DNA from: Candidatus Omnitrophota bacterium
GTDB lineage: Bacteria > Omnitrophota > Omnitrophia > Omnitrophales > JAQTRP01
DNA length: 47,601 bases
Direction: 5' to 3'
Assembly: GCA_028711765.1 (NCBI GenBank)
Contig: JAQTRP010000002.1
Location: 1-47,601, forward strand
Every line of letters begins with the position of its first letter. The first letter of the stretch is position 1. The notes under the pieces are model-generated. The model searched no databases and was not told the DNA's origin. It saw only the letters and a program-made list of their open reading frames with translations. A program made the translations under genes and the position numbers. Positions 1 to 42,036 of this stretch are shown here, piece by piece.

Positions 1-356
1 GTTATGTATATGATGCACTTATTGGAGGGGTCGATATCAAGAGGCGCATTAGCAGGAAGAGTTCCATCGCATTGGGATAAGTAGCCTGCTTTCGTTTTAA
101 GAGGAAGCAGCGATTCAACGCCTGCATTTGCCAAATCCTGCATCGTTTTAGCTTCATCTTCAAACGTTGTTTTGTCTTCGTCTTTCTTCAAAAACTTGAA
201 CGCTGCTACAATACCACTATCTAATTCTATGGTCGCTGTACGGAAATACCACTTTACCTCATCCGGATTTTTCTTTTGCAACATCTCTATTAGTCCATCA
301 GCTGTATAATGTTTGCTGAATTCTAACAGTTCCAATTTGATCTCTTGATTAAGCTT
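1..356 (-). other. Module 25 (truncated by window edge): possible protein-kinase-like N-lobe
   Basis: Follows GASLG at 357-371. KLNQEIKLELLEF...DSGIVAAFKFLKKDEDKTTFEDEAKTMQDLANAG resembles a VAxK lysine strand plus a helix-C Glu. Only about 118 aa are visible. Confidence 0.25.
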
Positions 357-3300
357 CCCAAGCGATGCGCCGCCTTCCGGCTGGTAGCCATATAGACGAG
401 ATAGATACACCATATTGAATCCGGCCGCCTCAAAAGCCTTCGCCAGTCTCGGACTCTTTACTATTTCTACCCATACTCTATTTACTATCCGCCGAACTCG
501 TTCTCTTGTTAAACCAAACTGTAACCCGATTGCATTAAGAGTTTTGCCCTTGAGGCGTTCCGCAAAAATATCTACATTCCTAGCACTCACCATTTTGCGA
601 AGGATACCTTTTAACAAAGACTTCAGCTCTTCTATATCTAACTTGCCTAATGAAAGAGGCTCTTTTCGCCGTGAATCTATTCTTAACACCAAACTTGATT
701 CGTGAACCTCTCTCCGCTTCAACCTTTCATTGTCCGGGACTATAGATATTTGAAGCTGTCTTTTTCCGTTGCTACGTCTCAATAAGCTGAGTCTAATGCT
801 TGTTGAAAGATACGCATGAAATGGTTTTCCTTGTATATATTTCGCGATACATGTCCTAAGCCTATCTTCCCATTTAGACTCATCTAAATTAACCGGCGTA
901 CCGTTTACATGCACCAGGCAAGCGGCCCAATATCTAAACAATCTCTCCGCCAAACCGCGTAACACATAGTAACTGGCGCGATTGCCTTGCTGGGCATCTA
1001 CGGTCAATTTATTCTCCTCTTCGTCTGTCAACCCCTGTTTTAAGATATCATCTATAGTATCCGGCAGACGTTCGTGTCCCTCGTGCTCCCCCAATATAGA
1101 CCTTGCACTTTCCCAATCTTCATAAGTAAGATTAAGGACGGGCGGGTCTACAACCAAATCTTCTATCCCTAAATACCGTTTTAACGCTTTCAATGCGTTA
1201 GCCATGCTGTCGCAACGGAATTTTCTATTTGCCCACGCTAAAATACCTCCTAAACCCTTATTGTTAAACTTGGGCACAGGTTTACTAAAATCAAAAACAA
1301 CTAAAGCGCCCGGCTTTTCCTTCAAGGCCTCGGCAAGCAGTCCTACCATATGCAGTTTCGCTTTCCTTGTAGCCCGTTGCCATATACAGCGCACGACACC
1401 TTTTCCAAGTTTGAATAGGGGCAGTATGTTTTCTTCTGTTATATCTTGCGCTGAACGGTTTTGCCTTTTGTCCGCACCCAACAACCGTCCGGCTTGCCTC
1501 TCTGCCTGCCTGCCGGCAAGGCAGGCTTCCGGCTTCTCTTGACTATTGACTATGGACTCTGGATCATGGACTGCTTCACGGCCCAGTGACGAACCTTGGA
1601 AAGGAAGCTTGCGCTGAGCGGCAAGCTCAAAAGGATTTAAACCGTCTTTGACTAACTCCCGATTCACCCGCATCAATACCGCGGGAAGCAAGACGTGAGA
1701 GCACTCAAGCAGTTCCGCCAATTCGGTGGAACTCAGTTTTATTAATCTCTTTTCATAATTAACGCTGGGAACCGTTTTGTCGCCTAAGTTTTCTAACCGC
1801 CCCATACACGTTTTGACATAGTCCGCATTCACGGATCTTAAAAGCGCCCTGTCATAGTTTTTTCTTTTTTCGGGATCGGTTAATACTTCGCGGGCGCGTG
1901 TTATCCGGACAAACATTTCGCTACTTTCTCCGCCGCGATGGTCCGGATGATACCTCGCTGCCAGTCCTCGATACGCCTTTTTTATTTCTTGCGGGGCAGC
2001 ATCAAATGAAACTCCGAGTGTTTCATAATGACTTCTTCCGGATAAAAATTCGGGTATTCCCGGTATGGTTAGCGCCTTTTCATCCCGCATTTTTGCGAGG
2101 CGACGCAGTACAACCCAAAAACATGACTTTAGCACCATAATATCTATTCCTATCTTCCAGGCAATCTCCGTGCGGAAGGGGAGGCGCCTTCTCGCGGGAT
2201 TCTTTCTAAAAACCGCCAGAACATATTCCACCGCAACATCCACGGCTAACGCGTTAATTATTGGGGCAACCTCTTCCAATAATGGCCTAAAGTTTGAACC
2301 TTCAACGTTAAATATTTTTAATCTCTCGCGAAGTGCTAACCGGCCGATCCCGAGCAGTTTCGCAGCCCTAGACTTATTGCCGGAACACGCGGTGAGCGCC
2401 CACACGGTAAGGACTCTCCTCAGAGTACTTATTGTGATTATCTCCACGTACGGCCATTGTCTTGCAATTTCCAATACGCTGTCCTTGCCTAATCTCATCT
2501 TTATCATCCATTCATTAAGAGCCGATAGGCATATCCCCAAATGGCACGCTGCCTTACGCCTGTTAAATTTACCGTTTTCTGAAGTTTCTTTCAGGGCGTA
2601 TGCTACAAGCTTTCTTGTCCATGCCGCAATGTTGTATGCTTTGAAGTCAGGATCCCTAAAGATATCTTTTCTCTTTTTGCTCGCCGTTGGGGGTGAGCTC
2701 CTAAAAATTGGGCGATCGATATTAAATCCTTCAATGTCTTTTAAATAAAGCGTCCTCGTGCTGATTCCGAGCAGTTTCGCGGCCCTAGCCTTATCGCCGG
2801 AACATGCAGCGAGCGCCCGCCTAACAAGAACTTTTTCCAATGAACTCACCGTAATTATTGTCTGAAGCGGCCATTCTTTCGCTATTTCCTGAATATTGCC
2901 TTTAACTCTCATGCTGCGCATTAATCTATAAATAGTAGTCTTACTCATCCCTAAGCGCAACGCCATCTCTCCTCTGTTTAATTTCCCATCCTTCGAAGCT
3001 AACATAAGGGCGTATGCTACAAGCCTTCTTTTCCAAGTTTTAATTTTGTACGTATCCAGATCCGGAAATCCATCAGTATTTATCCCTAATGACGAGCCGG
3101 TAGTCCGGTTAGCCAGTAAGCTTGTTAGCGTGTTAGCCGGTTGGACAGTTATGGGCCCAACCCGCTCACTGGCGAACTCACTAACCGGCGCACCAACACG
3201 GCCCAGCGACGAGCCGTCCGCGGTGATACGCTTTTCGATTTCTTGATGCATCTTTGCCAGATCTTCGGGCAGGGTAGAATATCTACTGCTACTGCCGGAT

Positions 3301-6300
3301 GGAACTTTTTCTCCTCTAAGAGAATAGTAAACCGCTTCCGCCATTGCCTTAGTAATGCGGGAATCATACCCTTCTTCGTTGAATACGGGAGGCAGGACTA
3401 GGCCCTTTTTCAATTGCTCTTCGGAAACCATAGAGGCTAAAGCGAGGCTGGCTTGGGCAGATACTTCTTCGATATCAATACCGTCCGTTAAAAGTCCTTT
3501 TTCTAAGGCATCCGCTAAGGCGCGGAATACACCGGGAAAGGCATAACAATTATTTATGGTGGTAATTCCGGGAATGCCGAATCTGCCGCAGGCGGCCACC
3601 GATATATTATTGAATTTACCCTCTTTCTTTTGCTTCATAATCTCCCCTATATCAAACTCAGGGTCGGGATTGGCGCAGGCAAAAACAAAAGCGCCGTCCC
3701 TCATCCCCGAAAGAAGCTTTTCCTCTCTCCCCCAAAGAGCCTTCGGCTGAGAAAGCCCTATGAAACCATCCGCGCCACTAAGCGCCCCTTTGAGGTCGCC
3801 GGAGAAGTCTTTGTTATAGTCTAAAAGACCCTTTTTGACAGGGGTTAAATCCCTTCTTCCACTATGAATCACGCCTTTGGAATCAAAAACAATAATATGC
3901 TCGACCCCCAGCCTATGAAGAAGATGAGCGGATGCAACGGCTGACGCACCCGCTCCGTTAATCACAATCTTTGCCTCTTCCAACGGACGGCCGGAAATCT
4001 TCAGCGCATTGATTACCGCCGCGCATATAGTAATAGCGGTGCCGTGCTGATCGTCATGCATAGTAGGTATTTTAAGCTTTTCATTCAGGTGCCTCTCGAT
4101 CTTAAAACATACGGGGCTCGCGATATCTTCAAGCATTATGAGGACGTCCCCATACTCCTTTTTAAGCTTCTCAACCTCTTTTATTACCTTCCTCTCCACG
4201 CCGGCCAAATCTTTATTCTTCCACTCTCGCCGCGTATCAACTAACAAGATATTGGCATCTACATTGCCAAACCATTTAAGCAGCGCTTGTTTGCCTTCCA
4301 TAACCGGGCCCGCGCCCATGAACCCGATATTGCCCAAACCCAAAACAGCTGAACCATCTGTTACAATCCAGAGCTTGTGGCTTGGGTCGTTTTGAATGTG
4401 AACGAATTCCTTGAAATATTCTTCATTTTCCGCGGCCAACTTAGCTATCTCGGCTACTCCGGGGCTATAGATAGTGGCCATTATCTCTGCGGAAGATACC
4501 GGCACCACGCCAAGTTTATCCCATAAACCTCTCAAATATTTATAGGTACTTTTGGGTTGCGGGTTAACCAGCTTACCGGCTGACCGGCTAACCGGCTCAC
4601 CAGACCGCCCCAACGACGCGCCGGCAGTACCGGTTGTAAGTTGTAAGTTATAAGTTTTAAGTTGCTCATTCTGTAATGGTTTACTTACAACTAATAACTT
4701 AGAACTTATAACTGAATCTCCCTCCCCCAGCGACGAACCACCCTCTTTTTTGTCGTGAGGAGTCCTGAGCGAATCCGCCGCAGTTTTGGCGGACGAGTCG
4801 AAGGGCGACGCGCCCGTAGCCCAGTTAGCCGGTGAGCCTGTTAGCGTGTTAGCCGGTTGGACAGTTATGGGCCCAACCCGCTCACTGGCGAACTCACTAA
4901 CCGGCGCACCAACACGGCCCAGCGATGCGCCCTTCGACTGAAGCGCTTTCAGCACCTCACCCGCTTTCTCGCGGACCTTTGCGTCCGGCTCGTAATCAGC
5001 GTTTGCGGAACATTGAACCCAAGGAACAACACCCGCGTCCCTAAGCTCCGCGAGGACTTCGAGAATCGCCATACGCATGGCGGCATTCTGCTCATACACG
5101 GTATTCTGAACGATAGACGTTCCGTCCGGCCCGTAAACATTAGGCACAAGCCTCACGGCAAAACGCGGCGCGAGATCCTGGATAGCTGTGCCGCCCATAA
5201 TCGAGAAAAGCTCGCGGATCCTATCCCTATTTACAGCATCCGTTTCATACTCAGGATTCGCAATCGGCTTTCCGTCCGCTCCGCGCGTAAAGCAACAATT
5301 GGCGTCGTGTTCATACTTAATAAGCTTGCGCGCGATAAGGGCTTTACGGCGATCGTCAACAGATGCCTCCTCATTATGCTTCGCCATAGTTATGAGAGTA
5401 ACTAAAGCTGCCCTCCGGCCTACAAAATCTTCCTCGTTATAAGTGGGGTTTGAAAACAATTTTCCGTCAGGATGTTGCTTCACAACGTTTTGCTCATCGT
5501 ACGAATACTTGAAAAGCATCATATCTGCGAGAAATCTGGCTATTTCAGGCTTATACCACTTCACATTCTGCCTCATGTGGTTAATGGCACTAATCCTAGC
5601 AGACGGATTCTCAAGGTGTTTTATCAATTTCGTACGGTCATTTTGAACAGGAAGTTTGTTATCCTCCGGCTGCTCCGCCCCGCCTGCCCTGAGCGATGTC
5701 GAAGGGTTGGCAGATTTCTCGGGAGTTTTGCCTACGGGGCCCGCCCGATCGCCGAGCGAACGGCCGCCGCCGAGACGCTTTATTAAAATAGACAACGCCT
5801 GATTAAAAAAGTCCTCGATTGAATCGCGGTCGCGCAACTTGCCGGGAGTGATAAGATCCGCGCCCAAGGCCGTCAACTGAGACGCGAGCGATTCCTCGCC
5901 GTTTTCGGTTTGCGTTGAGTTAACAATCACAACCGGCTTTACGGCACAACGTTCTCTGATGAACCTTAAAACAGCCCGCCCGTCAATACGCTCACGACCT
6001 CCGCATCCTTCCTTTCCGAGATCAAGAACTACTATATGGATGCCCGGCGATTTGAATTCGGCGTAAACATCGACATTATTCGAAGCCGAGATAATATTTT
6101 CCTCAGCCACTCCCAAACGTTCCAACACTTCACGCAACGCCTCTGAATGGTTCTCGTCATCTTCGGCAATCAGAATCTTGATCGAAAATTTATTTATCAT
6201 AGCGCCCAAGCTCGAACCCTTAGTTCCATCCTCTTTGCTATCCTTTTTCTCTTCTTCGCGGCGCCTGAGCTCATCTTCAATGGCTTTCCGCGCGTCTTTC

Positions 6301-9300
6301 TTCGACTTGAAACCAAACGAAGACATAAGACTCCTTACCAATTCCTTGAGCCCCTTTCCGAATTTCGGTTTACTTGCCGTATGATCGCCTAGCTCGGAAA
6401 TGGCCTCGTCCATCCAGAATTGCCTCATTCCCTCATCCAAACCGCTACCGGGTGCGCCGGCTGATGCCGCGGCATAGCGGAACATATCGGCGGGAGGGCA
6501 CTGCCTCTTGGACAAGGTCACGATTTGGATGGTCCCTAATTTACTATCTTCCCTGCTAAGGACGGCCGGATCAATTTTTTCGGCGAGGGTTGAGCCGTCC
6601 TCGTACTTGATGCCGTACCAGCCTGAACCTACTTTTGTAATAATGACCATACTGCCGCCGTGGCTCTCGAGCGCATCGCGCATAAGCGAAATACCCGTTC
6701 CCGTGCCGCCCTCGGCAGGCGCGTCTTCAACGGAAACATGTTCGCTAACACCGACGTCGAAGAAATGATCGCGTTTGTATGAACTCATTCCGGCGCCGCT
6801 GCCCTTGAAACTAAGGACGATTTCATCCTTGGTCTCGGCGGCATCAAGCTCCACTCTGCCGCTTGTTCCGCCAAGCCGCCAGATGCAGTCCTCGAGCGCC
6901 TCCCTTGTGGCGCGCCTCAGGTAATTTCTGTTCGCCCACCTAAGGGATATTTCCTTATGGCCTTTAAGAAGAGCATTTTTCTTAATTCCAAAAATCTCAT
7001 CGATTCTCTTGCGGGCAAGCTTGTAAACTTCTTTCCTCGCCAGATTCTTTTGAATCTTAATATTTCCCCAGTCGATATTTTTTATCTCGCGCTCGCCTTT
7101 ATAACCGATCGCAATATTTGAATGGTCGATAGGCGTATACCATCTCCACAATAAAACCCTTCTCGCAAACTCCCGCGCTGCATCAAAGCTTTCGAGAACG
7201 CCGACGGCGTGGGGCTCTAGGGATTTCTCACTATGTCTCTTATGCTCTTCAAAGCGGCGATTCCGATAAGGCTTGATATCCGCCTTAATGAGTTCGTTGG
7301 CGTGGTTGATAATCTGGGCAAACTCGCGGAAGAGGAAGTACATCCTCTGCAGATAGTTCCTCTGGATTTGAGGATCGGTAACGATTCTTTTATTGATTTT
7401 CTTCTCGTCTACTTTCTTCCCGTCTTTCTCCTCGGTCAGCAGTTTGCTCATATTAAGAAGAAACGAAAAATAGCTCTGGCTGAACGCGGGTTTTGCCGTC
7501 GTGAACTTTTTCAACTCCGCGCGGCCGCGCAACACGATGTCTTGGTCTTTTACGCCTTCTTTATTTAACTCCCTAAAGGCTTTTTCGAATTCCGCCATGT
7601 CCGGCTGATAAACCCTGCGGATGCCTTTGTCTATTCCGGAGTCGACCCCATAAAGGTATTCCATAAACCGGTCATAGAGGTCGTGGTATTCCACAACAAT
7701 ATGGCCGAGATCCCGGAAAACGCTGAGTATAAACTGCGCCTCCGCCGCCCTGCGCGCAAGCGACGCCTTCTTCTGTTTGGTCTTCGCCCTCTCGAGGCGC
7801 CCTACAACCTCTATAACGGCCTTCTCGATTTTCCCGCCTTTTGCCTTGGGTTTGCGCACAATCTCTGATAATTTATCCAGCTTAGCCGCCGCGACACACC
7901 TTTCCCTCAAGGCTGTTAGTAAATTGTAACGCGCGTCAATAACGGGTTTCGAGAGCTCGGCCAGCCCGAGGGCGGTCATATTCTTATCGTATTTCCTAAG
8001 CATGAATACCCGCCGCGCGCGGGCTGATTCCGACACTGTCGATCTTATAATGCTGAAAATGGTCTGATATAAAGGCGCGCCAATCCAAGCAATGAAGACG
8101 TTGGCGGCATAATACGGAACCGAAATCTTAAAATTAAACCTTTCGGCCAGTGTTTTCTGCATTTCAGGGATGTAGTAGACTATTCTCTCCCTCTTGTCTT
8201 GGCGCTGATAATATGCCGAAAGTTCCGGATACTGCTTGCCCATTTTCAAGCCTACGGCGCTGACGCACAACGCCTTCGCCAAAAGGGCGAGCAAATAAGG
8301 AGGCGGCGTGAAGGTATAAGCCATCCAGAGGGCGGCGCTTCCTGTGAACACGGCCTTGAGCAAATAGTAAGCGACACTGTAGTAGGCCGCGTTCCAAGTC
8401 CCAAGAAGGACACTCGCTTTCTGGAGACGATTTGAGAATGAGCCGGAATAATGCTGGCCGAATCTATCGGCGATATGCATACACAGCGCGCCGGTCGCGA
8501 AGCTGACTAAAATCCCTTGCTGGCCCGGCACAAAGAGAGCCGCCGCAAACACAGACAGAATGAACGGAATGCGGAACGCGAAGAACGCAACCTCGTTGAG
8601 CCTGAGTTCGTCCGTAATGCCGGTGAGTTTGAAAATGACTTGCTTCGCGCCGAGCGACGAGCCCACCGAAGGCCGGCGGGGAGGCCTGAGCTTGTCGAAG
8701 GACGAGGAGCCGGCGAGCTTTCTCAGGAACTTTGTCATTGTCCTAGGGCTGAAATTTTTGGACGGCCTGTCGTTGTTAAGATGAACCGCGGCTGTTCCGT
8801 AATTACTCAGGATTTCTCCGTTCTTTCCGACATCATCCTTTGTGTGTACCACGTCCGAATCATACGAAATAAGATTGGGCCTTGCCTTATCGAGCAATGC
8901 TTCATCAAGTATTTTAGGTGAAATACAAACGCCCATTCTAAGCAGATAGAAAAGATCGGCCGCGCACGAAGGTGAATCATAACCGTCGAGCGGATATTGA
9001 GCGATAAACTTGTTGTAATTATTATCGTGAACCACATCCGTCCTAAGGCTGCCCGCATAGTTCATCACGGAAACCGCGGAGGCCGCTTCCTTCAACTTTC
9101 CAAGCACATCCTTACCGTATTTTTTCTCATAGGCCGCGAGTAAAGAACTAGCGCTTTCAACAACAAGTATAAGGTCCTTTCCTCTAATCTTTTTCTCCTC
9201 GAAACCGTAACGCCAGAAGCACGCCGGGTTATAACGGCGATCTCTTGCGTTCGCGCTGTAAAAATATGTGTCTAAATGGTCATAAAAAGACACCGCGAGG

Positions 9301-12300
9301 GGCCGGATTCCTGTCACGTCTTCCACCGCCTTTAAAAGCGCCAGCGAAGGATGATGATTTTTGCACGCAAGAAGAGGAATAAGGCCCGCGTCAATGGCCT
9401 TTTTGACATAACCCTTCAAGTACTCGACTTGCTCATTAAAATTCTCAAGACCAAGCAGAACTATGCTATCCGGAATTATGTAATAACCGTCCGGCACCGC
9501 GACTTTGCGCCCGCCAACCTTGACAAAGCGCTCTTCACCTAACGACTTGCCAAAACTGTCATTGCGAGCGGAGTCCCTGCCTGGCCGGCAGGCAGGCGCC
9601 GAAGGCGGACGAAGCGAAGCAATCTCAGAGCCATTGCTTAGAGATTGCCTGCCTGCCGGCAAGGCAGGCTTCGTCGGCCTTATGGCCTCCTCGCAATGAC
9701 GTATCAGCTTTCCTAATGACCTACCTTCTTTAGACTGTGGACTGTGGACTATGGACTGGGCTTCAACGCGGGAATAATCGGGCGGGACAAGCAAACCAAC
9801 ATTTTCGCGCAAATAAGATGAGAAATTAATCACCGCGAGCTTCTTTCTGAGATCGTCCGCGCTTATGTAATCCGCGCTCCAGGGTAACTCGACGATAGTT
9901 GACTCGGGAATCCGGATGTCCGGCAATGCCTGCTTGATTAGTTTTTTCCAGTAGTCGGACTGGAGCTTCTTCGCAGTAGCCGGCGTCTCTACTCTCGCGT
10001 CCTCATCACGTTTCTTTATCGCGGCGAATATGTCATCGCCCTCATAACCGACTTCGGCGCCGTAGCGCTTCTTGTTGCCGCTTGAGCGCTCAAATTTGTA
10101 TATAGGCACGGCATTGCCGTCCTTATCCTTGTCCGTCTTCTCGGCAATGGAATATTCTATCGGAGCGGAACTCTTGAGACTTCTAATCGTGACTAACCTT
10201 ATACTCGGATCTCCGTATTCGCAGGCGTTGATTTCGGGCGCCGCGTCGCCGTAATCGATAGATTCCTTTCTGCCATTAACAACAATGACATTGCCGAGCC
10301 TATCCTTAAAAGTCTTTTTGGCATCGTCCCGCTGAGTTTTCCTTATCATCGCGAGCGAGATGTGCGCCCTGCCCTCTTTTTCGTTTTCAAGGTCACGGCT
10401 TAAGGCGTGCTCACCGACAAAATACCTATCCGCAAGCGGCGTAAGCAGATTATCGACGTTCATATATTGGACATGCTCGACGCCGAGATCCTCAAGCCAC
10501 TTGACGGCCTCGGCCTCTACAAAATTACCCGCCTCATCCGACCAGACCTTGCCCTTTAGGCGTACGTCGGGATTCAAAACATAATCGAACGCGTCACCGT
10601 GTCCCGCTCCGCCGAGGTTGAGGCGGTCTTTTTTCGCTAAGAATGCCTTGCCGTCATTCTTCTCGCCCGGCTTTCTGATTAGGCCCGGTAAACCCTTCTG
10701 GCGAACAAAAATGACCCTGTCCTTAATATCCTGCCATTCCTTCAGGCTCATCAAATATTCGATTGTCTCTTTCTCTGTCTGCTCACTCAACATAAAGACA
10801 AAAGGATACATTTTCTTATGGCCGTAAGTCTGTGCCGCCGCTTGCAGCTTATGAATCAAGGCTTGATAAAGACTCTCTCCGCTCAACGGCGTTGCCGGGA
10901 ACATACCTTTGGGATGATCGTACTTAAGCCCTGAGCCGGTGCCGCCCGCGACTACGATGCCCGCGAACTTCGCTTTACCTTCATCCGCGCCCCAACGTAA
11001 AACTTCTTCGCCTTTAGCCGCCGCTTCAGGCCTTCTTTCCAAAATAGGTTTTGAAGGAATAAAACCTTTCGTATCAATCGAAAGTTTCTCTTTCCTTACG
11101 ACGAGCTTCTCGTAGAGCGCTGTTACTTCGGCCCAATCAACACCCTCGATATCGCCGAGGAGGTTCCCTCTTTCGGCATCGGTAAGCCCATCCCAGCCCG
11201 CGAGCAAATGCTCCTGCCCAAATTCCTTTAATTTCGCAAGCGCCGCTTGATAGCGCACCTCGAGAGATGAGCCGGAGGACGACCAGCCGCTTAAGTGAGA
11301 GTGATTTGCTATGTTAAAACCGCTCCCGCTAAAGGCCGCTATTAATCTTGGATTCTCTGCTATTTGTCTCTTTATTTCATTTGTTATCTGTCGAATTCGC
11401 TCCCTTGTTAAACTAAATTGTTTTCCTATTTCCTTAAGTGTTTTACCGCTAAGGCGTTCCGCGAAGATTTTTACATCCCTATCTTCTATCCCACTACCAA
11501 GAACACTCTTTAATAAAGACATCAAATCTTCTATCTCCAAGTCGTTTAAAAAAAGTGCCTTTTCGTCCCTTGAACGGCGGTTTAGCCCCAAGCCTAGTTC
11601 GTCAATTTCTCTCCGTTTAAGCGGTTCCTCATTTCTATCACCGGTAATTATAGATATTTGACGCTTCACTTTTCTATTAAAATATGCCCACAGGGCAAGT
11701 CCAATGCTTTTTGAAAGATACGCATGAAATGGCTTTCCTTGTTTATACCTTGTAACACATGTCTTAAGCCTTTCTTCCCAGGAGAATTCTTCAAATTTAT
11801 CACATGATATGCCGACCTTTTTCGCCGTATAATAGGCCCGATACCTAAATAGTCTTTCTGCTAAACTGCGTAGGACATAATAACTTGCAAGGTTGCCAAA
11901 CTGGGCATCTTCGGCTAACTCGTTCATCTCCTTTTCCGCTAATTTCTGGTTTAAGATACTATCTATTACATCCGGCAACTGTTCACATCCTTTGTGCCTA
12001 TACAAGATAGCCTTTGTCCTTCCCCAGTCTTCGTTCTTAAACCAGTCTTCGTTCTTAAAATTAAGAACGGGCTTAACAACAACCAAGTCCTTTATGCCCA
12101 AATGCTGTTTAAGCGCCTTCGATCCCTCGGTCAAGCTATTGCAGTGAAATTTCGCTACAGCCCAGTGTAAAAGACCTATTAACGACCTACCATTAAATTC
12201 GGGTGTGGATTTGTGAAAATCGAGAGGGATCAAAGCGCCCGGATCTTTCCTGACTGCCTTAGCGAGCAAATTTACTATATACAGCTTCGCCTTTTTTGTT

Positions 12301-21300: not shown

Positions 21301-24300
21301 AAAAGAAGTAATTCGGTATCGAAAGCGGGCGATTTGTCTTTTACGAAAGGAAGGATCCCATAAAGCGCTTCCCTCTTGAATAGTTTAAATCCCCGCTGGG
21401 TGTCTTGAACGCTCCGGAGTTCCGGCAGGATAATCCGCACGCAAAAGCTGTAAATTTTACTCGATAGAATCCCCTGAAGCGACATACCCTCACGACTAGC
21501 ACCAGCCGTCCAGCGGGAACCAATCGCGACATCCGCCTTCTTACGATAAAGCGGCCTGAGCAATAGGCCGATCTCGCGGAGGTCGACTGAGGTATCGACA
21601 TCGGTATAGCCGATATAGTCGGCTTTATTCTCTAACAACGCCGCCCCTAGGCCAAAGTGCACGGCCCCGCCTTTTTTGCCGCCCAAGGCTTTCTTCTCTT
21701 CGGGGGTAACCACCTCGACTGAAAGCTGCTCAGAAAAAAGGCGTTCTCCTTTTTCCCCGTACTCTCTCAGGATTTCCCGCCAAAGTTTCTCTATGTATTT
21801 AGCCGAAGCGGCGTCCGGACTACCATCGTCAACCGCGATCAGTTTCCACTTAAAATTAGGGTTCGCTTTAGTCAATTCCTGAAGCTGGGCCACCTTAAGC
21901 CTTAACGCGTCTTCGCCCTCCGGATTATCGGCGCTCCGCGGTTTAAGCCTCGCTTCTTCGTTATACATAGGCATAACCAACGCCACCGTGACCGGCTCCT
22001 TTATGGTTTTGATGAAGCCGAGCGACCGTCGTATTTTATCCGTCTCCGCCGCGCTCCTGCCCTCACCAAGCGACGAGCCGTTAAAATCCGTCGTCCGTGA
22101 CTCGTCGTCCGTCGTCCGCATTCTGTCTTTTGTTATAAATTGATCACTGACGTCTGACGACTGACGCCTGCCCTCCGTAGCCTTGGCGAAGGAGGGACTG
22201 GCGACTGTTTTCCCGCCCAGCGATGCGCCCGTAGGGCTAAGCGAAGAGCTCCAAACAGATCTCGTTGTCAAATCGAGCGCATTGCGGTACATTACGTAGC
22301 ATTCTTCGATAGACGGGCTGTGCGTCCCGAATATATTAGAAAGGCCGTTGGAAACGGAAACCTCTATGATCGATTCAAGGTCTTTGGCTTGGGCCACCTT
22401 CCTATTCGACGGTTTGTCGGAGAAACTACCAAAATCATCCACGAACAGGACCACTATGTCGTCCTTACGTCTTACCAACTTAAAATTCCCAAGGTGCATA
22501 TCGGAGGTGTCGGGAGCCTCGCCGTAGTACCCAAGGAAATGGAATATCGCGATGATGCCCAACACCTGCCGGGCTATTGCCTCGCCGAGTTTCCGCGCAT
22601 CGCCTCCATAGCAAGCGTATTCTTTCGCGATCTTTTCCAACTGATCCGGACCTATATCTTCGAGGCGCGAACCGTCCTCGTATTCGAAGATGGCTATATT
22701 GGCGGATTCTTCCAGGTTGCTCATATCGAAGGCCGTCGTCTTTCCGTAGATTTCGAGCTCGTTATACGGCAGTGAGTAAAAAGCCACGGGGCGGACAAGC
22801 GACGCATTGGGAAAGCGCTCCAATATTTGGTTTGGTATCTCGAAATCATTGGGGCTTACTATGTGTCTCGCGTACTCATCGTGGTCTTCCTCGCCGGGAA
22901 TCTTTATTTCGAGCGCGAAACTCACGCGTTTGGTTTCGTCCATCCTGAATATTACATGTCTTCTGAATGAATTCGGAGACGGCGTTACATATATCCCGCC
23001 GCCCAGATGGAAATACGTTCCTTCTCTGATGCAATCCGCCAGAACGCCGCCGCACTCTCTGTATATCTCTCTTAACGTCGTCAGTATGCAGAGAAGTTTT
23101 CTGACATTCTCCGGGTTAAAGAGAAGGTTGTACATCGCAGGGTCGCCTGCCATGAGCCTTTCTTTAGCGCCGTCGAATGCGCGTATACCGGCCGGCTCAC
23201 AATCCGGTTTTGCTTCAAGATCGGGCATGCCTTCCGTCGCAAGAAGAGGAAGGATATCCATCCTCTTCGCCATCCTCCGCCAAACGAGAATGGCGGTGGC
23301 ATTATCTCTATCAAACAGCTCTTCTCTGAATAATTTTATTTCGCCGGGCAACAATTGGAGCTTGGGATTCCTTTCGCAAAATATGTCAAGGATGTACAGC
23401 ATAGAAGCTTTTGGCACGAGGTTTTTAGAAAATAGCAAACGCATTAAGTCCAGATCGGACTGGACAGGCTCACGTTTGACTCTTGGGTCGCTAAAATAGG
23501 AAGATACAACATCAAGCAACCTCAGAATCTGCTCTATGTCGACCTCGTCGCGTAAATGGTCGAAGAGTACTTCGTAAAGAGACGGCTTGTTACTAATGGC
23601 CTTCGCAGCAGCGAGGCAGAGATTTTTGCGAACCCGATAACTAAAAATTCCTTTCCTGTATAAAATCAAGAGATCCGCAAAACCTTTATCGGATAATTGA
23701 ATGTCCGGATTTTCATGTATGGCGTGCCATAGGTCCTGACTAACAACACTGGGAGCCTCTTCTGCTACCCCGGCGTCTCTTCTCTTTAAAAAATCAAACA
23801 TACCCCTAAGCGTCATGCTGTTAAAGTACATGCCTCCTGCTTCTTCCTCTGTCCGGCCCAGCGAGGCGCCGCTCCCGAGTTGTGCGTATCGGCTAACATA
23901 TTTGAAGAATCTTTTACGATTATCATAATGCCGAAATTCGGACCCGCCTTCTTTCGCATACCATCTTGCGAGTATTTGGGTGATGCTCTCCGTTTTAATG
24001 TCTCCCAATATCGCTTCAGGAGGCGGATTGGTCATTAATGCGGCATGGTCGCACGTAAAAAGCTTTCCATCGGCTCCGACAAACAGAAAGATTCTACCGG
24101 CTGCACGATGCCCTGTCGTTACATCAAAAGGATTCAATGTTCTCGCAAATATCCCTTCCTCTTTATCAAAGTCTTTGGCGCCGCCCTGCGCGATAAGATG
24201 ATTCACGTACACTTCGTCTGTCGAGGGATTCAAATGGTACCGTTCGAAAATATGCTTGCGCTCTTCGCCTCCATGGCCAGGTGCGGAAGCCAGCCGAACG

Positions 24301-27300
24301 TTGTACCCGATAGCCAGCCGCTTCTTCCGAGCAACATAATCCTGAACGCCACGAACAATCTTTTTTAAATCTACTCCCTTTTCCGATTCTTCCTTCTCGT
24401 GCCACTTATCTACCGAGATTACCAACGTAACATTATCGGGCAGTTTGTCCAAGAAACCATCAAGTTTGCTTTGGTCTTCGGGAAAACAATAAGCGTTGGT
24501 GTCTATGTGAACTTTTTTAACGTGCCGCGAGGCAAAGTTAATTAAGTCATAAAATTCCGGTACAGGTTCTCGTGTCTCAAAATCTCTCTTATAGTAGTAA
24601 AAGGGCTCTCCTCCCGTAAAATATATGCTGGGATAACCGTCCATCTCCTCAAGCACCCTTTTTAGAATTTCAAGTGGTATATCCGCTTCGGGTGCAGCAC
24701 GCCTAACATCCTCGATGCAACACATGGGGCAATTGAGCGGACATTTGTGCGTAATCATTATGTTGATATTTGGGTCAAAAAGCGGAGATAAGGCTTTAAT
24801 AAGGCTTGCTACATTTACCGCTTTTTCAGCCACAACCTTGGCGGCAGGCTTGCCCCTTCCAACCAATGCTTTTGCAACGGTCTCATAGGAGCAACCGTCG
24901 CTCTTACTGCATAACAAATCGATGAGCGCCTTTGTCGAACGTGGATCATCAATACCGCATAACGCCCTAGCGGCAAACAAGCATTTAACATAATCGCCGT
25001 TTTCCAAAAGGTCGATGAGCGGTTCTGCGGCGGAAGGGTCCCCGATTTCACCTAGAGCGATGGCCGCACTCACCGTTTTATTCGATGGTTCGCCTCTCAG
25101 CGCTTGAATCAGGGGCCGAACGGCAGCACGTTTAAATTCAACGATAGCATCAATAAAACAGGAATGATCGCTTGAACGACGATACTCGGGCTCCTTCAAG
25201 TTCTCTTCATAGTAATTGTCACTTTCCAGACAAGCAATAAGAGGTCCTATCGCAGAAGGATCGCGGATCTCGCCAAGAATGTTAGCCGCGTTAGCTTGCA
25301 CATTTTTCGAGTTATTGTTTAGCTCTTTGATTAGAACCGGCACAGAGGAAGGACCGATCTCCTTAAAGACATCGACTAAGTTATCAACCTTTTGAAACCG
25401 CCCGTAACTACTACACCAACCACTATGTTTAGACGTCCTATAACAATCCCACTCATAATAAGGGGCTTTCTCCAGACAACGCAACGCGTAAGGAAGCGCC
25501 CTCTCTCTGCCTATCCTCGCTAAAGACAATACGGTCCTTTCACGTGGAAATTCTCGATCCATCCGCTCTAATCCTCCATCGGCTATATACTCAAAAGCGG
25601 GCTCATAACGCAAACTTTCCAAGGCCTCAAGGACTGCTAAAACCACATTGCGATCCCCGCCGCTTTTCAACGCCTTGAAAAGCGGCCCTCCTGCCGAGAG
25701 ATCGCCGATCTTGCCTAAAGTTTCTGCGGCGCGCTCTCGCAGTAAAGGATTAAACCAGCCTCGATAACCCCTCAGGCATTTCGAAAGAAACCGAACGGCA
25801 GGCTTTTCCATTTCTACCAAAGCGCGTGAGGCAGCATCGGCAATGTGTGAATCTTCGCTCTTTAACGCCTCGACCAACTCTGAAAACGAACATTCGGACA
25901 TCTTGGAAGCCAGCTCATCAGCTAAAGCAGCTGCCGCTCCCGCGCTATTTTCCTCCCCCAGCGACGAGCCGGTAGTCCGGTTAGCCGGTAAGCCTGTGAG
26001 CGAGTCAGCCAGTGCACCGTTAGGTCCTGAGATTGCCACGGCTGCTTCTGGCAGCCTCGCAATGACACCGCTAACTATGAACTGTGAACTATGAACTATG
26101 AACTGCGGCTCCGCCGCACGGCCCAGCGACGCGCCGGTAGTCCGGTTAGCCGGTAAGCCTGTGAACGAGTCAGCCAGTGCACCGTTAGGCCCTGAGATTG
26201 CCACGGCTGCTTCTGGCAGCCTCGCAATGACACCGCTAACTATGAACTGTGAACTATGAACTATGAACTGCGGCTCCGCCGCACGGCCCAGCGATGCGCC
26301 GCTTCCGCCTACGGCGGGCTCTTCACTAAAAAGGCGGGCGAGGAGAGTGTGAGAGTCGGGAACGCATGCCTTGCAAAAATGATTGGCCAACCGTTCGAAC
26401 AAACTGCCGTAGCCTTGAACCTCGGCAAGCCTTTTTAATACCGCTGAAATATTGAGTCTAACGCTCGTAGTCTGTAAACTTTTGCATGTGTCTTCGAACC
26501 CTTTCTCGAAAGCCGACGCGATTTCTAATCTTGTCCCCTCAGTACCCCTTTCCCACGATTTCATCTTGCGCAGCCTGTCAAGATAGCGCCTCGAAAATCC
26601 GTGAATAAAATCAACCAGCCAGGATTTATAACTAAACTGGTTGGATGTATCGTAGAGCGTATCGATAATGTCGAGGCCGTTGAGATTAAAAAAGATAACC
26701 TTGCCCGTTTTCGCGTCAACAAATACCGTTTCCGGTTTGGACTCAAGAATTGAAGCATTGGGAAGGAACCAACCGCTTAGACGGGCAAGCCTTCCCAAAT
26801 CGCGCGCAAAGTTAAGCGCGGCTTCACCGGAAAGTTCGCGATCCAAGCGTTCGTCACTAAGGGCATACGCATCGAGCTTTTCGCGAACGACAAAACGGCC
26901 GCGGCGGGCAATATCGCAGACCGGAAGACCAAGCTGCTTTAATATCCGGCTGGTAAGCGTGCGCTTTCTTTCTTCGCGTCCTGTGTAAAAGCTTTGCTTT
27001 TCTATCGCTATAGGCAGCGTTTTTCCATCTTCGAAAACTAGATCATAAAAATATGAAATCGGCATCTTGTCTTCGGAGTCTACGAGCTTCTCGAAACTAT
27101 CGCCGAGATAATCTTTTATAAGCTTCGCTAATTTGTAATGTTGAAAGTAATCGCGGCTTAAGACCCAGCTTAGGCGGGAAAGGAGGCGTTTCGCTTTGCG
27201 GGAGCGGGAGTGAAATAAATTATCAACCGGCATAGCAATCTTCTTTGTAAACCAATGCCGAATGCACCTTGAGCGATAAGCCCAGCTATCGGGAAACCAC

Positions 27301-30300
27301 CGCTCGAGCCCCACGCTGCCTCTTTCATCTCCGAGGCTGCGCCCTGAGCCTGTCGAAGGGCTTGCCCCGTCGATAGATTTTCCGAAGGTTTTATCTACGG
27401 GGCTTGCCTCACCAGCGGGCTTTACATAAACCGAGTAACCAGATATGCCTTCGCTAATTTTCGTAAGTCTTGGAAACTCCCGATTGCCCAACAAAACAAA
27501 CTTAGCGCCTACCTTAAGCTCGCGGAGAAGTTTATCCTCAAGTTTTGTGGCAAAATCCTCTGCCTGTCCCTTAGGGGCAGCGAAATAGGAGAATATAATA
27601 TCGTAATCTCCGTAATCGACCATCTCAAGAAAATCTCCGTGTTGAAAATCAATCTTTTTGGTATCTACGACGCCGTGAATCATATCGTGATTTAGTTGCG
27701 CCCATTTACTTGCGTTAAAAAGCTCATCATCTAATTCCCGACCCGTTACATGACCCGCCCACAAGGAGAAAATCATAGCAGTTTGACCATTGCCATGGCC
27801 TAAATCTAACACCCGCGTATTTCCATCAATCTCAAGTTCATCTTTAATATCAAGAATGCTTCTTATGCGCGACATTTCGAATTTGCTGCCATTCACTGTT
27901 CTTTTACTAAGACTATAACCGGCCTTAGCATACGAACCTCTAAAGAATTGCCTGATGGCTTCGACTTTCCTCTCTTCTTCTGTGCCCCCTGCCGGTGTAA
28001 GCAATGAGCAATACTTTTTAACAAAATTTTCGATCATTCCGTTATCCATGCTTTCATTAAAACGAGGAATACTTTTTCGGGCCTCGATTATCACCTCTAT
28101 TCTGCCCAGCAAAGCCTTGTTACATTCTAAGGCCTTGATTAATATCTTTTGTTTCTCCTCAACGGAGGATAGTCTCTCTACGGCATCCCTTAGCTGCAGG
28201 CGCAAGAGTTCAAATTTGTCCAGCCAAGCGTCTAATCCCTTAAACCATTCTCTAAATGTTTTGCTGGTGTACTTAATATCATAAAATTGACTGCAAAGCC
28301 CCCTGAGGGCTCTTGCCAGATCACGAAGGTTTATCTTCAACGCTTCATCTTTCAGTTCCGTCCTTAATCCTTCATTAACAACCCTTTTGTCGAAAAACAC
28401 ACACCAAAATATCTTGTCCATTGCATCGCTAGCCACGTTCATTTTCTCAACAATACCGTTTACTTCACAAATATCATTCGCTAAAAGTTCTACGGCAGCT
28501 TCCGGATCAAACAAACTCGTCTCGCCGAGCGACGAGCCTGAGGGTTTGAGTTTGGCTAATTTGCCCACTGTATCGACTCCGCTAAAATCGGCAAGCCCTT
28601 TAAGCAAATCGGTGCCTTCGACTCGAAGCGGGGCACCTTCATAAATACCGGAATCTATCAACGTGCCTGCCAAAGTAACAAGATCATCAAGCACCTTTCG
28701 CTTCAAGTCGGGTGCGCTCTGCTCATTCAACGAGAGAGGAAGGGCAAGCACAAGTCCCCTTTCCTTCGGCTCTGACGAGTCGTCAAGTCTCCCACGGATG
28801 AAATCAGGATGCCTGTTCTTATATCGAGGCACATACATTGTTTTATGATCATCCCACATAAACTTTCCGGTATTTCGCCCTTCAGCCACAGCCACGCAGA
28901 ATCTATCCTCGACCGGCAGAACAACAAAATCGGCCCTATGCCATTTGCTACTCCTCGCGACGCCGTATATTTCCAAAATAAGTTCTCTGCCAGACCATGG
29001 CGTCATACTCGCACGATATCCGAAATCGCCGGACGAGCACTGCGCAGCACTTCCGCTTCCTGAAGCAAGCTTGCTTATATCAAATATGCGCCTGAGGGGC
29101 TCCACAGTCGGTGCCTTGCTTATTTCAGAAAGGGCTCTTCTCCTAATTCGCTTCTCAGCCGGTTGCTCATTTTGGGGGATTTTTTCTTTAATCACTTTAA
29201 CCGATTCAGCCGGTAAAGCGCCGGCGGCCACATCCTGCGGTTTGTCTTCTCCGGTTCTTGGCAACAATTTCTTGGGGGTAAGCGTTTTCTTCCCGCCGAT
29301 AATTTCACGCGTAACAGTGTCTGTTCTGCCGGCCTGAACCGGCTTGGAAGGGTCGGCTGTGTTCGATTTGTCTTCGCCGGTTTGAATGCCTAGTTTCTGT
29401 CCGAGTCTCGTCTCAAGATCCTCGAAAGTCCTGGAAAGATCTGAGATGCATTTCTCCTTTGCTCCTCTATCCTCAGTCATAGCCAAAGGAGCCAACCTTC
29501 TAAGAGTTGGGATAAGCTGTGCTCTTATTCCCTCTACAATAGCGAGCGCTTTTCTACGATCTTCTTCCCCTCCAGAATCACATTTACACGAGCACTCATC
29601 AGCGATACCGATAAGCGCATCCCTTAGGTGGCGATAATCCCACATCGTGTCTTCCGATTTACCCAAGCTAGATCCCATTACGCCGGCGCCGACAGAGGCA
29701 AGCCGCGAAAGCTCCGCGTTTATCACAATATCCACCGGCAGGCCGTCGCAGACATGTGCCTCGGGCGACATAGTCTCTTTCGCTACGCTAAAGTCGTTTT
29801 GGATGCGCTTGGCGTAAAGCTTATCTCCTAATTCAAAGTTATCCGCGGCGGGAGAAATGACGAGGTAGGATATATTCCCTTCTTTCAGGACGCTCTTAAC
29901 TGCTTCGGTGTGAAAACCGCCGGTGAGAAGGAATGACTGGGGATTGTCTTTTAGGAAAGCGATGAAATTCCGCGCTATGACCTTATCGCGCATTCCGGCG
30001 AAGCGATAAAAGCGAAGGGCGGATTTAAGATGACGGTGTAAGGCGGCCCCGTTGGAAATATGCACACGTCGCAACATATTGGTTTTAATATCGCCAATTT
30101 GTTTCTGCGAAAACGATTTCTTTGCATATGCTGCTTGATTTCCAACGGGGTGAAACGTGGCCTCGCGATATACCTTTAAATCCTTGCGGGTGGCTTCGCA
30201 CCTTAGGATGCGCCGTATCACCCGGAAAGATTTAAGCTCATCGATAAACTGTTTCTCGTCCTCGGTCTTCGCGAGGCGGGATTCTATTTGTGAAGCGAGC

Positions 30301-31470: not shown

Positions 31471-31499
31471 ATTATAACACACAAATTACGGGAAGGCAA
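31471..31499 (-). promoter_or_regulatory. Candidate sigma-70 promoter for the giant ORF (extended -10)
   Basis: The minus strand reads TTGCCT (31499-31494), a 17-nt spacer ending in TGT, then TATAAT (31476-31471), about 110 nt upstream of the ATG. No clear Shine-Dalgarno precedes the ATG. Sequence pattern only. Confidence 0.3.
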
Positions 31500-31607: not shown

Positions 31608-32180
31608 CTATATTTGCTGAATTTCCTGCTCTTTGGTTTTAACGAGCTTATCGATTTCTTCTATGAACTGGTCGGTAAACTTCTGCGATTCCTTCTGGAG
31701 TTTAAAAGCTTCATCCTCGGGAATCTGCTTATCCTTTTCGAGCTTTTTCAAATGCTCGTTGATCTCATGGCGCGAATTGCGGACAGATACCTTCCCCTCC
31801 TCCGCGAGGCGGTGGACAATCTTCTTAAGCTCGACTCGTCTCTCTTCGGTAAGGGGCGGCACCTGTATCCGGATGGATTTTCCGTCATTTGCCGGCGTGA
31901 GGCCCAGGCCCGACGCCTGAATGGCTCGCTCGATATCCTTAAGCACAGTCACATCCCAAGGCAGAATCAGTATGTTGCGCGGATCGGGCGTGCTCAGATT
32001 CGCGAGGCCCTTAAGCGGCGTGAGGGTGTCGTAGTAACTGACCTTTACGTCTTCCACAAGATGCGTTGAGGCACGGCCCGTGCGGATATTCTGGAACTCG
32101 CGCTTTACCGCGTCAAACGCTTTCTGCATTTTTGCTTTTCCGTTATTGACCATGTCGCGTACTGCTTGAGGTTCTGCCAT
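31608..32180 (-). CDS. frr: Ribosome recycling factor
   Basis: ...FQNIRTGRASTHLVEDVKVSYYD... The track ORF begins at GTG 32195. ATG 32180 is preferred because GGAGG lies 8 nt upstream. Confidence 0.95.
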   Translation of the reverse strand: MAEPQAVRDMVNNGKAKMQKAFDAVKREFQNIRTGRASTHLVEDVKVSYYDTLTPLKGLANLSTPDPRNILILPWDVTVLKDIERAIQASGLGLTPANDGKSIRIQVPPLTEERRVELKKIVHRLAEEGKVSVRNSRHEINEHLKKLEKDKQIPEDEAFKLQKESQKFTDQFIEEIDKLVKTKEQEIQQI

Positions 32181-32198
32181 GATTGCACCCTCCACCTA

Positions 32199-32260
32199 TG
32201 TAGGGCGCGTTTCCCAAACGCGCCGCCGCGCGTTGGGCCGTTCGGGGAACGGCCCCTACA
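32199..32260 (-). other. Nested GC-rich hairpins between pyrH and frr
   Basis: Outer stem tgtaggg / ccctaca. Inner hairpin gcgcgttt-ccc-aaacgcgc (32205-32223). Inner hairpin gggccgttc-ggg-gaacggccc (32235-32255). Confidence 0.6.
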
Positions 32261-32275
32261 ATCTGTTAACGTAAT

Positions 32276-33608
<1,333 letters not shown>

Positions 33609-33612
<4 letters not shown>

Positions 33613-41655: not shown

Positions 41656-41679
41656 ACCAACCTTACGGCTTAAGCCTTA

Positions 41680-42033: not shown

Positions 42034-42036
42034 AAT

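Follow-up and report, generated by a model that had tools for sequence, protein, structure and literature searches.

A 47,601-nucleotide (nt) stretch of contig JAQTRP010000002.1 from a Candidatus Omnitrophota bacterium (the window, below) carries one giant open reading frame (ORF) along which a strict pentapeptide, G-[S/A/K/R]-S-L-G, recurs between otherwise unrelated protein modules. The minus strand is free of stop codons over 10,472 codons, from 31418 down to 3, and the gene continues past the window's left end; counted from the ATG at 31359-31361, its likely start, the protein begins MAKRSMVLKIISLVV and is at least 10,453 amino acids (aa) long. The start codon lies about 250 nt downstream of frr, which belongs with the same-strand upstream neighbours rpsB-tsf-pyrH-frr (31608-34475), and the interval 36684-47584 holds an ABC exporter, lpxB, lpxI, lpxA-like genes and a hybrid sensor kinase. 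With the rpsB-tsf-pyrH-frr cluster and lipid A genes so near, the giant ORF can be placed at a chromosomal locus of a diderm bacterium. Its main features at the N-terminal end are these:

3-31361, minus strand: giant ORF (frame open from 31418; C-terminal part beyond the left end)
31290-31346, minus strand: N-terminal hydrophobic helix MVLKIISLVVCIAFTTTNI, with MAKRS before it and AWS/AP after it
29772-31184, minus strand: conserved N-terminal domain (N-domain), candidate processing hydrolase (alignment, AlphaFold2 (AF2) model, Foldseek)
31068-31070 (D), 31062-31064 (H), 30978-30980 (E), 29988-29990 (R) and 29910-29912 (H of GGFHT), minus strand: near-invariant residues of the N-domain

The expression G.SLG matches the giant ORF at 33 sites, and these are the 33 canonical sites, with the same coordinates and residues, that had been listed in an earlier note on this DNA; the variable position is occupied by Ser (16), Ala (7), Arg (5) or Lys (5). 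Independent and identically distributed residues of the same composition would yield 0.40 copies, in keeping with that note's rough estimate of fewer than one per 10,000 aa or so, and the comparison with shuffled sequence that it had proposed gave a mean of 0.38 and a maximum of 4 in 2,000 residue shuffles. The motif is thus about 80-fold over-represented and is the most over-represented gapped pentamer of the ORF, the runner-up having six copies, while the other five reading frames of the window contain none or one. In the list that follows, sites are numbered from the protein N-terminus and were found, unless stated otherwise, by the regular expression on the translated ORF.

29661-29675, minus strand: site 1, GSSLG, aa 582, first junction, right after the N-domain, in a low-confidence model region
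28524-28538, minus strand: site 2, GSSLG
27330-27344, minus strand: site 3, GRSLG
26286-26300, minus strand: site 4, GASLG
26121-26135, minus strand: site 5, GASLG, closes a 55-aa polar spacer unit
25956-25970, minus strand: site 6, GSSLG, closes a second copy of the 55-aa spacer unit
23856-23870, minus strand: site 7, GASLG, closes the HEAT + radical SAM/SPASM module (23859-25958)
22215-22229, minus strand: site 8, GASLG
22065-22079, minus strand: site 9, GSSLG, opens the GT2 module (21150-22067)
21147-21161, minus strand: site 10, GKSLG, opens the HATPase_c module (20439-21149)
20436-20450, minus strand: site 11, GRSLG
19809-19823, minus strand: site 12, GRSLG
19704-19718, minus strand: site 13, GSSLG
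18603-18617, minus strand: site 14, GSSLG
17478-17492, minus strand: site 15, GSSLG
16635-16649, minus strand: site 16, GKSLG
15729-15755, minus strand: sites 17 and 18, overlapping double GKSLGSSLG
15234-15248, minus strand: site 19, GKSLG
13119-13133, minus strand: site 20, GSSLG, aa 6096, kept at the aligned paralogous position (site 32)
13020-13034, minus strand: site 21, GSSLG, aa 6129, paralogous position decayed to GRLLG
9711-9725, minus strand: site 22, GRSLG
9537-9551, minus strand: site 23, GKSLG
8649-8663, minus strand: site 24, GSSLG, opens the sensor-kinase-like module (6207-8651)
6204-6218, minus strand: site 25, GSSLG
5751-5765, minus strand: site 26, GRSLG
4917-4931, minus strand: site 27, GASLG
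4725-4739, minus strand: site 28, GSSLG
4608-4622, minus strand: site 29, GASLG, opens the malic-enzyme module (3204-4610)
3201-3215, minus strand: site 30, GSSLG, closes the malic-enzyme module
3084-3098, minus strand: site 31, GSSLG, followed by the HTH_8 x2 + DnaJ module
1581-1595, minus strand: site 32, GSSLG, aa 9942, paralogous counterpart of site 20
357-371, minus strand: site 33, GASLG, aa 10350, paralogous counterpart decayed to GSSLE
11259-11273, minus strand: decayed site GSSLE, aa 6716, aligns with canonical site 33 in the paralogous module
1476-1490, minus strand: decayed site GRLLG, aa 9977, aligns with canonical site 21 in the paralogous module

The motif is sharply bounded. Its information content falls to background one residue beyond the pentapeptide, Leu occupies the fourth position in 33 of the 34 GxSxG strings of the ORF, and one-mismatch variants are not enriched (14 observed, 19 expected), which means that a site is either intact or gone. 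The SLG tripeptide itself occurs 36 times against 5.5 expected; outside the canonical sites the earlier note had recorded RRSLG (22017) and KESLG (20787), both confirmed, and had overlooked a third, PLSLG (645-659). The expectation that the sites occupy polar linkers is borne out by their flanks, which contain 24-28% hydrophobic residues against 34% and have a lower FoldIndex than random positions (p = 0.0016).

Splitting the giant ORF at the sites yields 34 pieces of 4 to 1,103 aa. Searches of Pfam and PDB identified among them a methyltransferase-like piece, HEAT repeats with radical SAM/SPASM, a GT2 glycosyltransferase, two HATPase_c domains, a CheD-like hint, UDP-GlcNAc pyrophosphorylase, sigma-70 region 4 helix-turn-helix (HTH) domains, a receiver domain, malic enzyme, two Fis-type HTHs and a DnaJ J-domain, and gave no match for about half of the pieces. 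Pfam models are covered nearly completely inside single pieces (GT2 3-164 of 168, malic enzyme 14-181 of 182, DnaJ 2-63 of 63, HATPase_c nearly end to end), and hence the sites do not interrupt domains. Residues 20-341 of a stand-alone malic enzyme (1vl6) align to aa 8960-9305 of the giant protein, which by extrapolation puts the enzyme's N-terminus at about aa 8941, within some five residues of the junction at 8936/8937. The piece at aa 7590-8404 (6207-8651), with hydrophobic or transmembrane (TM) helices at module residues 23-41 and 120-138 and HATPase_c at 576-677, is laid out like a complete classical membrane sensor kinase (TM-loop-TM-kinase). The malic-enzyme and sensor-kinase pieces show that what lies between sites can be a whole protein. 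The best database matches of the malic-enzyme module are about 840 aa long, roughly double its own size, and no giant protein occurs among the 120 matches listed, so that nothing closely comparable to the module occurs in other giant proteins.

Ten pieces are short polar spacers, several of them ending in ...ANRTTG[AS]SL, and in ten cases the distance between sites is 4 to 64 aa. Two tandem 55-aa copies, GRAAEPQFIVHSSQFIVSG...ANRTTG[AS]SL, lie at 25959-26288, and related spacers of 64 and 39 aa, GRVGAPVSEFASERVGPITVQPANTLT..., at 4728-4919 and 3087-3203; these peptides lack both homologues and a predicted fold. Hydrophobicity along the ORF is highest in ASIVAFFVGVISFLSILII (18702-18758, aa 4221-4239), a segment about 30 residues ahead of a junction, and the module that ends there would, if released, be tail-anchored.

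How junctions behave over evolutionary time could be read inside the ORF itself, where a paralogous pair (aa 6017-6741 and 9884-10375, 38-48% identical) was used for the comparison because the collections hold no close orthologue. The GSSLG of aa 6096 is matched by GSSLG at 9942 within a linker that is gapped and has little else in common; opposite the GSSLG of 6129 stands GRLLG (9977), and opposite the GASLG of 10350 stands GSSLE (6716). The two strings noted earlier as degenerate sites (11259 GSSLE, 1476 GRLLG) are therefore true homologues of canonical sites that have lost one invariant residue. Equivalent junctions, which the earlier note had asked to see compared, thus keep the motif in one pair, while in the other two one partner has decayed; judged from these alignments, the sites seem to be inherited along with their modules, to be under selection and now and then to be lost. 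The pair is part of a module of about 700 aa and no assigned function that occurs twice (11139-13400 and 300-1770), ends in a sigma-70 region-4-like HTH and holds an internal triplication of about 105 aa (aa 6143-6445).

The same design extends to relatives of the giant protein. An exhaustive HMMER search with its first 1,200 residues returned 6,838 proteins, 4,325 of them at E <= 1e-10, which match only about the first 530 residues, always at their own N-terminus, and range in length from about 500 to 6,489 aa; the few that carry names are hypothetical proteins of Omnitrophica/Omnitrophota, the PVC group, Endomicrobiales, Firestonebacteria and FCPU426. Among 194 family members the cargo behind this N-domain is almost wholly different, with hardly anything in common outside it. 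The motif search on related giant ORFs that had been suggested earlier revealed punctuation as strict as that of the window protein in three dialects: [GA]ASLG or GxSLG (homologues P0097, P0049, P0132, P0065, P0002 and P0001), [GA]ARLA (P0034, 10 copies; P0102, 6 copies), and RSE[VLA]R or R-x-E-L-R (P0093, 12; P0071, 9; P0082, 8; P0111, 8; and others). Counts over the 194 homologues are 85 for RSExR (4.3 expected) and 20 for [GA]ARLA (2.2 expected). All dialects have in common polar flanks and an aliphatic fourth residue, which in the other dialects is L, V, A, I, M or T; [GA]ARLA lacks Ser, and position 2 of R-x-E-L-R accepts A, T, P, L, N or G. In the N-domain tree the dialects cluster by clade and the window protein groups with other xSLG users. 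An independent case is a 7,809-aa gene with the same N-domain at another locus (L084, positions 1-12256; JGI 3300047491, contig Ga0485326_000062), whose first 3,237 aa contain 14 copies of RSE.R against 0.064 expected. When this giant was scanned unsegmented, the MarC model (2-202 of 203) started at the residue after R-S-E-L and fitted into one piece, and URO-D and PHP each fell inside single inter-site pieces; its motif Ser is never encoded by AGY (0/14), and its final Arg by all six codons. Next to it lies a 751-aa paralogue with the same N-domain and without cargo, both genes being transcribed divergently from a common 290-nt spacer, and genomes thus hold several family members side by side.

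Short members of the family, of about 700 aa, consist of the N-domain and a C-terminal domain of about 250 aa, whose model (predicted local distance difference test score, pLDDT, 74.5) shows a generic Rossmann-like fold that neither matches any PDB entry significantly nor displays features of a protease. This Rossmann-like domain is shared by the short and the giant members (P0003-P0171, P0010-P0132), and nearly all of them end in -[KRQE]-[SA]-A (KAA, RAA, KSA and similar), a tail that could be a sorting, degradation or tail-specific-protease signal.

What the N-domain may be is suggested by its conserved residues. An alignment of 39 members shows as invariants Q-D-x-H, Q, E-G, G, Y, R, G-G-F-H-T and P, with D-x-H, E at +28, R and GGFH(T) present in 39/39; among the 194 homologues, [DE]-x-H-27aa-E is found in 182 and GG[FYW]H in 192, and as first acid nearly every member has Asp, while the L084 giant has Glu. 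The AF2 model built from the 39-member alignment (pLDDT 80.6, predicted template modelling score 0.75) comprises an N-terminal helix and a disordered stretch besides an alpha/beta core that carries IQDLH, LEGG and GGFH on its strands and is interrupted by some 290 aa of inserted helices; the first GSSLG falls in a low-confidence tail. The top two Foldseek matches in PDB are EreC structures (6xcq and 6xcs, E 0.14-0.19, below significance), and further matches below significance include Bcr135 (3b55/2rad, ranks 18 and 38) and ChaN (2g5g, rank 42), all three being members of the TIKI superfamily. TIKI profiles (PF01963, PF05139, PF04187) gave no significant match to the N-domain, and ten N-domain core sequences produced a single weak match to PF04187 (ChaN, Tiki superfamily; E = 0.14). 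RRSP, an effector of MARTX toxins, is a sequence-specific endopeptidase of the TIKI family with essential residues E3900, H3902, E3930, R4001 and H4030, and Bcr135 has the pair His85-Glu113 (PMC6254334). The His-to-Glu spacing of the N-domain, 28, equals that of RRSP and of Bcr135, and its Arg lies 26 residues ahead of the second His (29 in RRSP). From a weak fold match and a strong motif match, then, the N-domain is probably a TIKI-fold hydrolase with an intact active-site pattern, and we infer with less confidence that it may be a peptidase which cuts the punctuation. The earlier statement that no protease domain is visible in the window holds for profile searches, yet it passed over this plausible hydrolase at 29772-31184.

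Complete units, polar linkers, junctions kept between paralogues and lineage-specific dialects best support the first of the explanations that the earlier note had offered, namely that the giant ORF encodes a polyprotein and that G-[SAKR]-S-L-G marks endoproteolytic processing sites, and we consider it somewhat probable that such cleavage takes place. The gene would be translated as a single chain, brought to the membrane by the N-terminal helix, which is also present in homologues and resembles a Sec signal or membrane anchor in its sequence. A protease would then cut each G-x-S-L-G, the bond after Leu being the likeliest: only the aliphatic fourth residue is shared by every dialect, homology to MarC and to malic enzyme starts right after it, and S-L-G conforms to the small-Leu-small rule of the MARTX cysteine protease domain, which cuts in unstructured linkers between effectors (PMC2900308). 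Cutting would release about 30 separate enzymes and regulators together with short spacer peptides. The N-domain, acting in cis or on other copies, would be the most economical enzyme, and a specificity tuned by lineage would explain the dialects, the pentapeptide (GxSLG, GARLA, RSEVR) co-evolving with its protease. That the N-domain (29772-31184) is indeed the protease that cuts is a possibility we put forward tentatively; about as tentative is the generalisation that Omnitrophota and neighbouring candidate phyla (Elusimicrobiota/Endomicrobiales, Firestonebacteria, FCPU426) pursue a common polyprotein strategy for cellular genes, in which ordinary enzymes, regulators and also integral membrane proteins, dozens to a chain, are made together and then separated, with a TIKI-fold protease head anchored in the membrane and co-evolving pentapeptide dialects.

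Several observations weigh against this account. The N-domain matches known folds weakly (Foldseek E 0.14-2.4, probability below 0.5), sequence and profile searches with it in Pfam, NCBIfam and PDB gave nothing significant, and among the members of the TIKI superfamily are also esterases and a haem-binding protein. The N-domain, its conserved residues unchanged, stands likewise at the head of some 40 long proteins, forming a large clade, that use none of the three dialects and in which a de novo motif search found no other shared punctuation; it also heads proteins of about 550-750 aa without cargo. Its function, conserved in these unpunctuated and cargo-less relatives, cannot depend on the motif. 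A signal-like N-terminus predicts a periplasmic N-domain, yet most cargo modules are cytoplasmic in type. Delivery of the giant protein into another cell is conceivable and would be compatible with the life as predators or parasites that has been proposed for Omnitrophota (10.1101/2023.11.21.568195). The part of the gene beyond the window's left end could hold another protease, and the codon bias at the motif, described below, shows something besides peptide selection, be it shared ancestry or a nucleotide-level preference.

The alternative that survives best, if fairly unlikely, keeps cleavage and changes the enzyme: the motifs would be cut by a C-terminal domain beyond the window, by a separate HtrA/Prc-type or MARTX-like cysteine protease, or by a protease of a host or prey. 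The evidence for cleavage holds equally here, the presence of the N-domain in unpunctuated and cargo-less relatives is readily accommodated, and S-L-G matches the small-Leu-small specificity of MARTX/TcdB cysteine protease domains. Tail-specific proteases bind non-polar C-termini of the -[SA]-A kind, such as the tail conserved in the family. HExxH metalloprotease-like modules are, moreover, common as cargo in relatives: HELxH zinc-metalloprotease-like motifs in the cargo of unpunctuated members number 9 against 0.17 expected (P0010, P0034, P0039, P0097, P0132 and others), and the visible part of the window ORF has no HExxH. Against a different enzyme stands the lack of any C80, C39, S8, HExxH or further protease signature in the 10,472 visible residues. 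The dialects also follow N-domain phylogeny, as would be expected of a co-evolving cis enzyme, although shared organismal ancestry would produce the same pattern.

Less likely again, and in our view improbable, is that the motifs are not cut at all and serve in an intact protein as linear recognition motifs, whether for docking, as marks for modifying or ligating enzymes, or as signals for export or assembly, a reading that takes in the docking or ligation tag of the earlier note's third explanation. Linker location, strictness and dialects would also be expected of a co-evolving binding motif, and proteomics has detected an Omnitrophota protein of 39,678 aa (10.1101/2023.11.21.568195). The pieces, however, are heterogeneous and complete and include integral membrane proteins (MarC in L084, the two-TM kinase in the window ORF), which is hard to reconcile with work inside one uncut chain, and some inter-site segments are nothing but polar spacer of 4-64 aa. 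A modification directed at Ser, the second explanation raised by the earlier note, fails as a common mechanism and is unlikely, since [GA]ARLA and R-x-E-L-R do not conserve Ser; neither is there a carrier fold or an Asp before the Ser.

A third alternative, which we regard as very improbable, sees in the motifs the scars of gene building, 15-nt joints for the insertion, duplication and exchange of modules, with a secondary role or none in the protein. It draws on the codons. The earlier note held that these vary freely and that selection acts on the peptide only, and synonymous codons do differ (Ser TCG/TCA/AGC, Leu five codons, Gly four), but usage is far from the gene average: for the motif Ser, 23/33 codons are TCG, which has a share of 17% gene-wide, and 3/33 are AGY, against 39% gene-wide, and the Leu is CTG in 18/33 against 14% gene-wide. 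The motif 15-mers are also more alike than codon usage predicts, with a mean pairwise nucleotide identity of 0.68 against 0.576 +/- 0.008 simulated from the gene's codons. Modules have been duplicated together with their junctions, and cargo differs nearly completely between relatives, both as gene building would have it. Yet the peptide is invariant while synonymous positions differ and the codon for x is free, and the use of separate codon families for Ser (AGC/TCA/TCG) and Leu (TTA/TTG/CTN) implies selection on the peptide, still the main signal despite the bias. The final Arg in L084, drawing on all six codons, speaks against scars too, as does the fact that no nucleotide conservation was found beyond the motif's 15 nt; near-miss peptides, through which a neutral scar would decay, are not enriched, and 15 nt with variable third positions are too short a homology for recombination. 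The TCN/AGY skew fits a strictly conserved ancestral Ser, because the two codon families are not joined by single synonymous steps, and the preference for TCG and CTG possibly reflects shared junction ancestry, translational pausing at module boundaries or a nucleotide-level role. The last motif Gly is GGG in 13/33, the nucleotide consensus reads GGC-NNN-TCG-CTG-GGS, and the gene as a whole has about 48% GC.

G-x-S-L-G formally fits GxSxG, like the GHSLG of acyltransferases, and its GxSL resembles the GxDSL of carrier proteins, but that the motifs are catalytic or prosthetic sites is scarcely credible when the ORF has no alpha/beta-hydrolase, acyltransferase or PP-binding (PF00550) match in Pfam, the residues ahead of the motif are polar or small and form no beta-strand, sites are in ten cases separated by 4-64 aa, 33/34 GxSxG strings have Leu at position 4, position 2 is never His or Asp, and equivalent dialects do without Ser. 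A hydrolase elbow is ruled out by the missing fold, the polar upstream residues and those spacings, and a phosphopantetheine site by the residue before Ser, which is S/A/K/R and never Asp, and by the lack of a PF00550 match. Sites for signal peptidase I were rejected on the grounds that the GARLA and RSEVR dialects break the -3/-1 rule, and internal translation starts for want of a conserved Met after the sites; as for C39 double-glycine sites, the visible ORF has no C39 match and the motif offers S-L or L-G, not G-G.

Among known systems the MARTX (multifunctional autoprocessing RTX) toxins and viral polyproteins offer the closest working parallels to the processing proposed here. Like the giant protein, MARTX toxins are very large and modular, with conserved ends and freely swapped internal cargo domains; their sites are Leu-centred and of the small-Leu-small type, comparable with the S-L-G that is invariant at 33/33 sites of the window ORF amid polar flanks of low FoldIndex; and their embedded protease, a cysteine protease domain activated by InsP6 and acting after delivery into a eukaryotic cell, releases units, one of which, RRSP, has the TIKI fold proposed for the N-domain. 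The giant protein is nonetheless no MARTX member, as no visible segment matches RTX/HemolysinCabind (its C-terminus lying outside the window) and Pfam and PDB sequence searches of the visible 10,472 aa found no Peptidase_C80. MARTX toxins are exported by type I secretion, whereas the N-terminus of the giant ORF is Sec-signal-like; at least 33 strict pentapeptides contrast with a few loose MARTX sites, and the cargo, from uncultivated Omnitrophota-like bacteria, resembles ordinary bacterial enzymes and regulators rather than anti-eukaryotic effectors. In viral polyproteins (picorna-, poty-, flavi- and coronaviruses) one ORF gives rise to many mature proteins through a junction motif with a lineage-specific consensus and an embedded protease. 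The giant ORF likewise has a short conserved motif at junctions between complete proteins, but it is chromosomal, beside rpsB-tsf-pyrH-frr, no viral-type protease fold was detected in it, and some of its inter-site pieces are mere short spacers. Multi-core precursors of ribosomally synthesised and post-translationally modified peptides (cyanobactin PatE-type) consist of repeated cassettes, each flanked by short protease recognition sequences; the likeness in repeated units between short conserved sequences is one of analogy only, the units here being whole enzymes instead of cores of 6-10 residues, and no PatA/PatG-type proteases were found. To the TIKI hydrolases (Tiki1/2, TraB/PrgY, erythromycin esterases, ChaN, RRSP) the N-domain is linked by its predicted alpha/beta core, by structural matches to EreC, Bcr135 and ChaN, and by acid-x-His, Glu at +28, Arg and a His 26-29 residues after the Arg, as in RRSP; it differs in having no profile-level membership, in its ~290-aa helical insertion and in a first acid that is Asp, not Glu, in nearly all members.

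For giant Omnitrophota proteins themselves cleavage has been suspected and C39 or S8 peptidase domains proposed, with information on cleavage points lacking (10.1101/2023.11.21.568195), and a 2026 preprint that defines a class of "multi-enzyme metabolic clusters" does not mention cleavage (10.64898/2026.06.07.730766). The window protein resembles these giants in size range, few TM segments, likely taxon and tiling by unrelated Pfam domains (glycosyltransferase, methyltransferase, radical SAM, response regulator, HEAT), and it departs from the published proposal in that the visible ORF shows neither C39 nor S8 and points instead to a specific motif with its dialects and to another candidate enzyme. 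A literature search across about 8.3 million full texts for the motif strings, and for Omnitrophota with "polyprotein", returned nothing relevant, and we regard four things as undescribed: the punctuation, the dialects, the N-domain family taken as one unit, and the TIKI-like character of that family; the punctuation would, by analogy, be a variant of polyprotein processing and not a new principle.

It is an openly stated question in the field whether giant Omnitrophota-like proteins, whose lengths run from 10,000 to beyond 100,000 aa, work as single chains or as cut pieces. The motif predicts where cuts would fall, at 33 sites in the window ORF and at other motifs in relatives, and comes with a candidate enzyme with named catalytic residues and with natural negative controls in the decayed GSSLE and GRLLG, so that cleavage is now testable in existing metaproteomes and by a simple reporter assay. 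Annotation and structure prediction also gain a rule by which giant ORFs can be divided into units. If the processing account is true, polyprotein expression, known from viruses and a few toxins, would serve housekeeping-type genes across a bacterial group, the TIKI fold would gain a site-specific processing role, and the motif would stand as the first sequence rule for dissecting giant bacterial proteins within an unrecognised mode of bacterial gene organisation and expression.

The surroundings of the gene add a few details. Genes for proteases or secretion systems are absent from the 16 kb upstream of the giant ORF, none of the 80 loci returned by an frr synteny search has a punctuated giant gene downstream of frr, and a search for homologues of the visible C-terminal 527 aa gave none. 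The window's first 50 nt had no exact match in genome and metagenome contig collections, and two neighbour genes have no record in sequence collections. The nearest frr match in a search of 185,579 reference genomes, at 55% identity, belongs to an Omnitrophota metagenome-assembled genome, and one other neighbour gene was found only on a 5.6-kb Logan contig of run SRR22315508. Between frr and the giant ORF, about 110 nt upstream of its start codon, there is one further feature:

31471-31499, minus strand: promoter-like site TTGCCT-17-TATAAT with an extended -10 TG (consensus match only)

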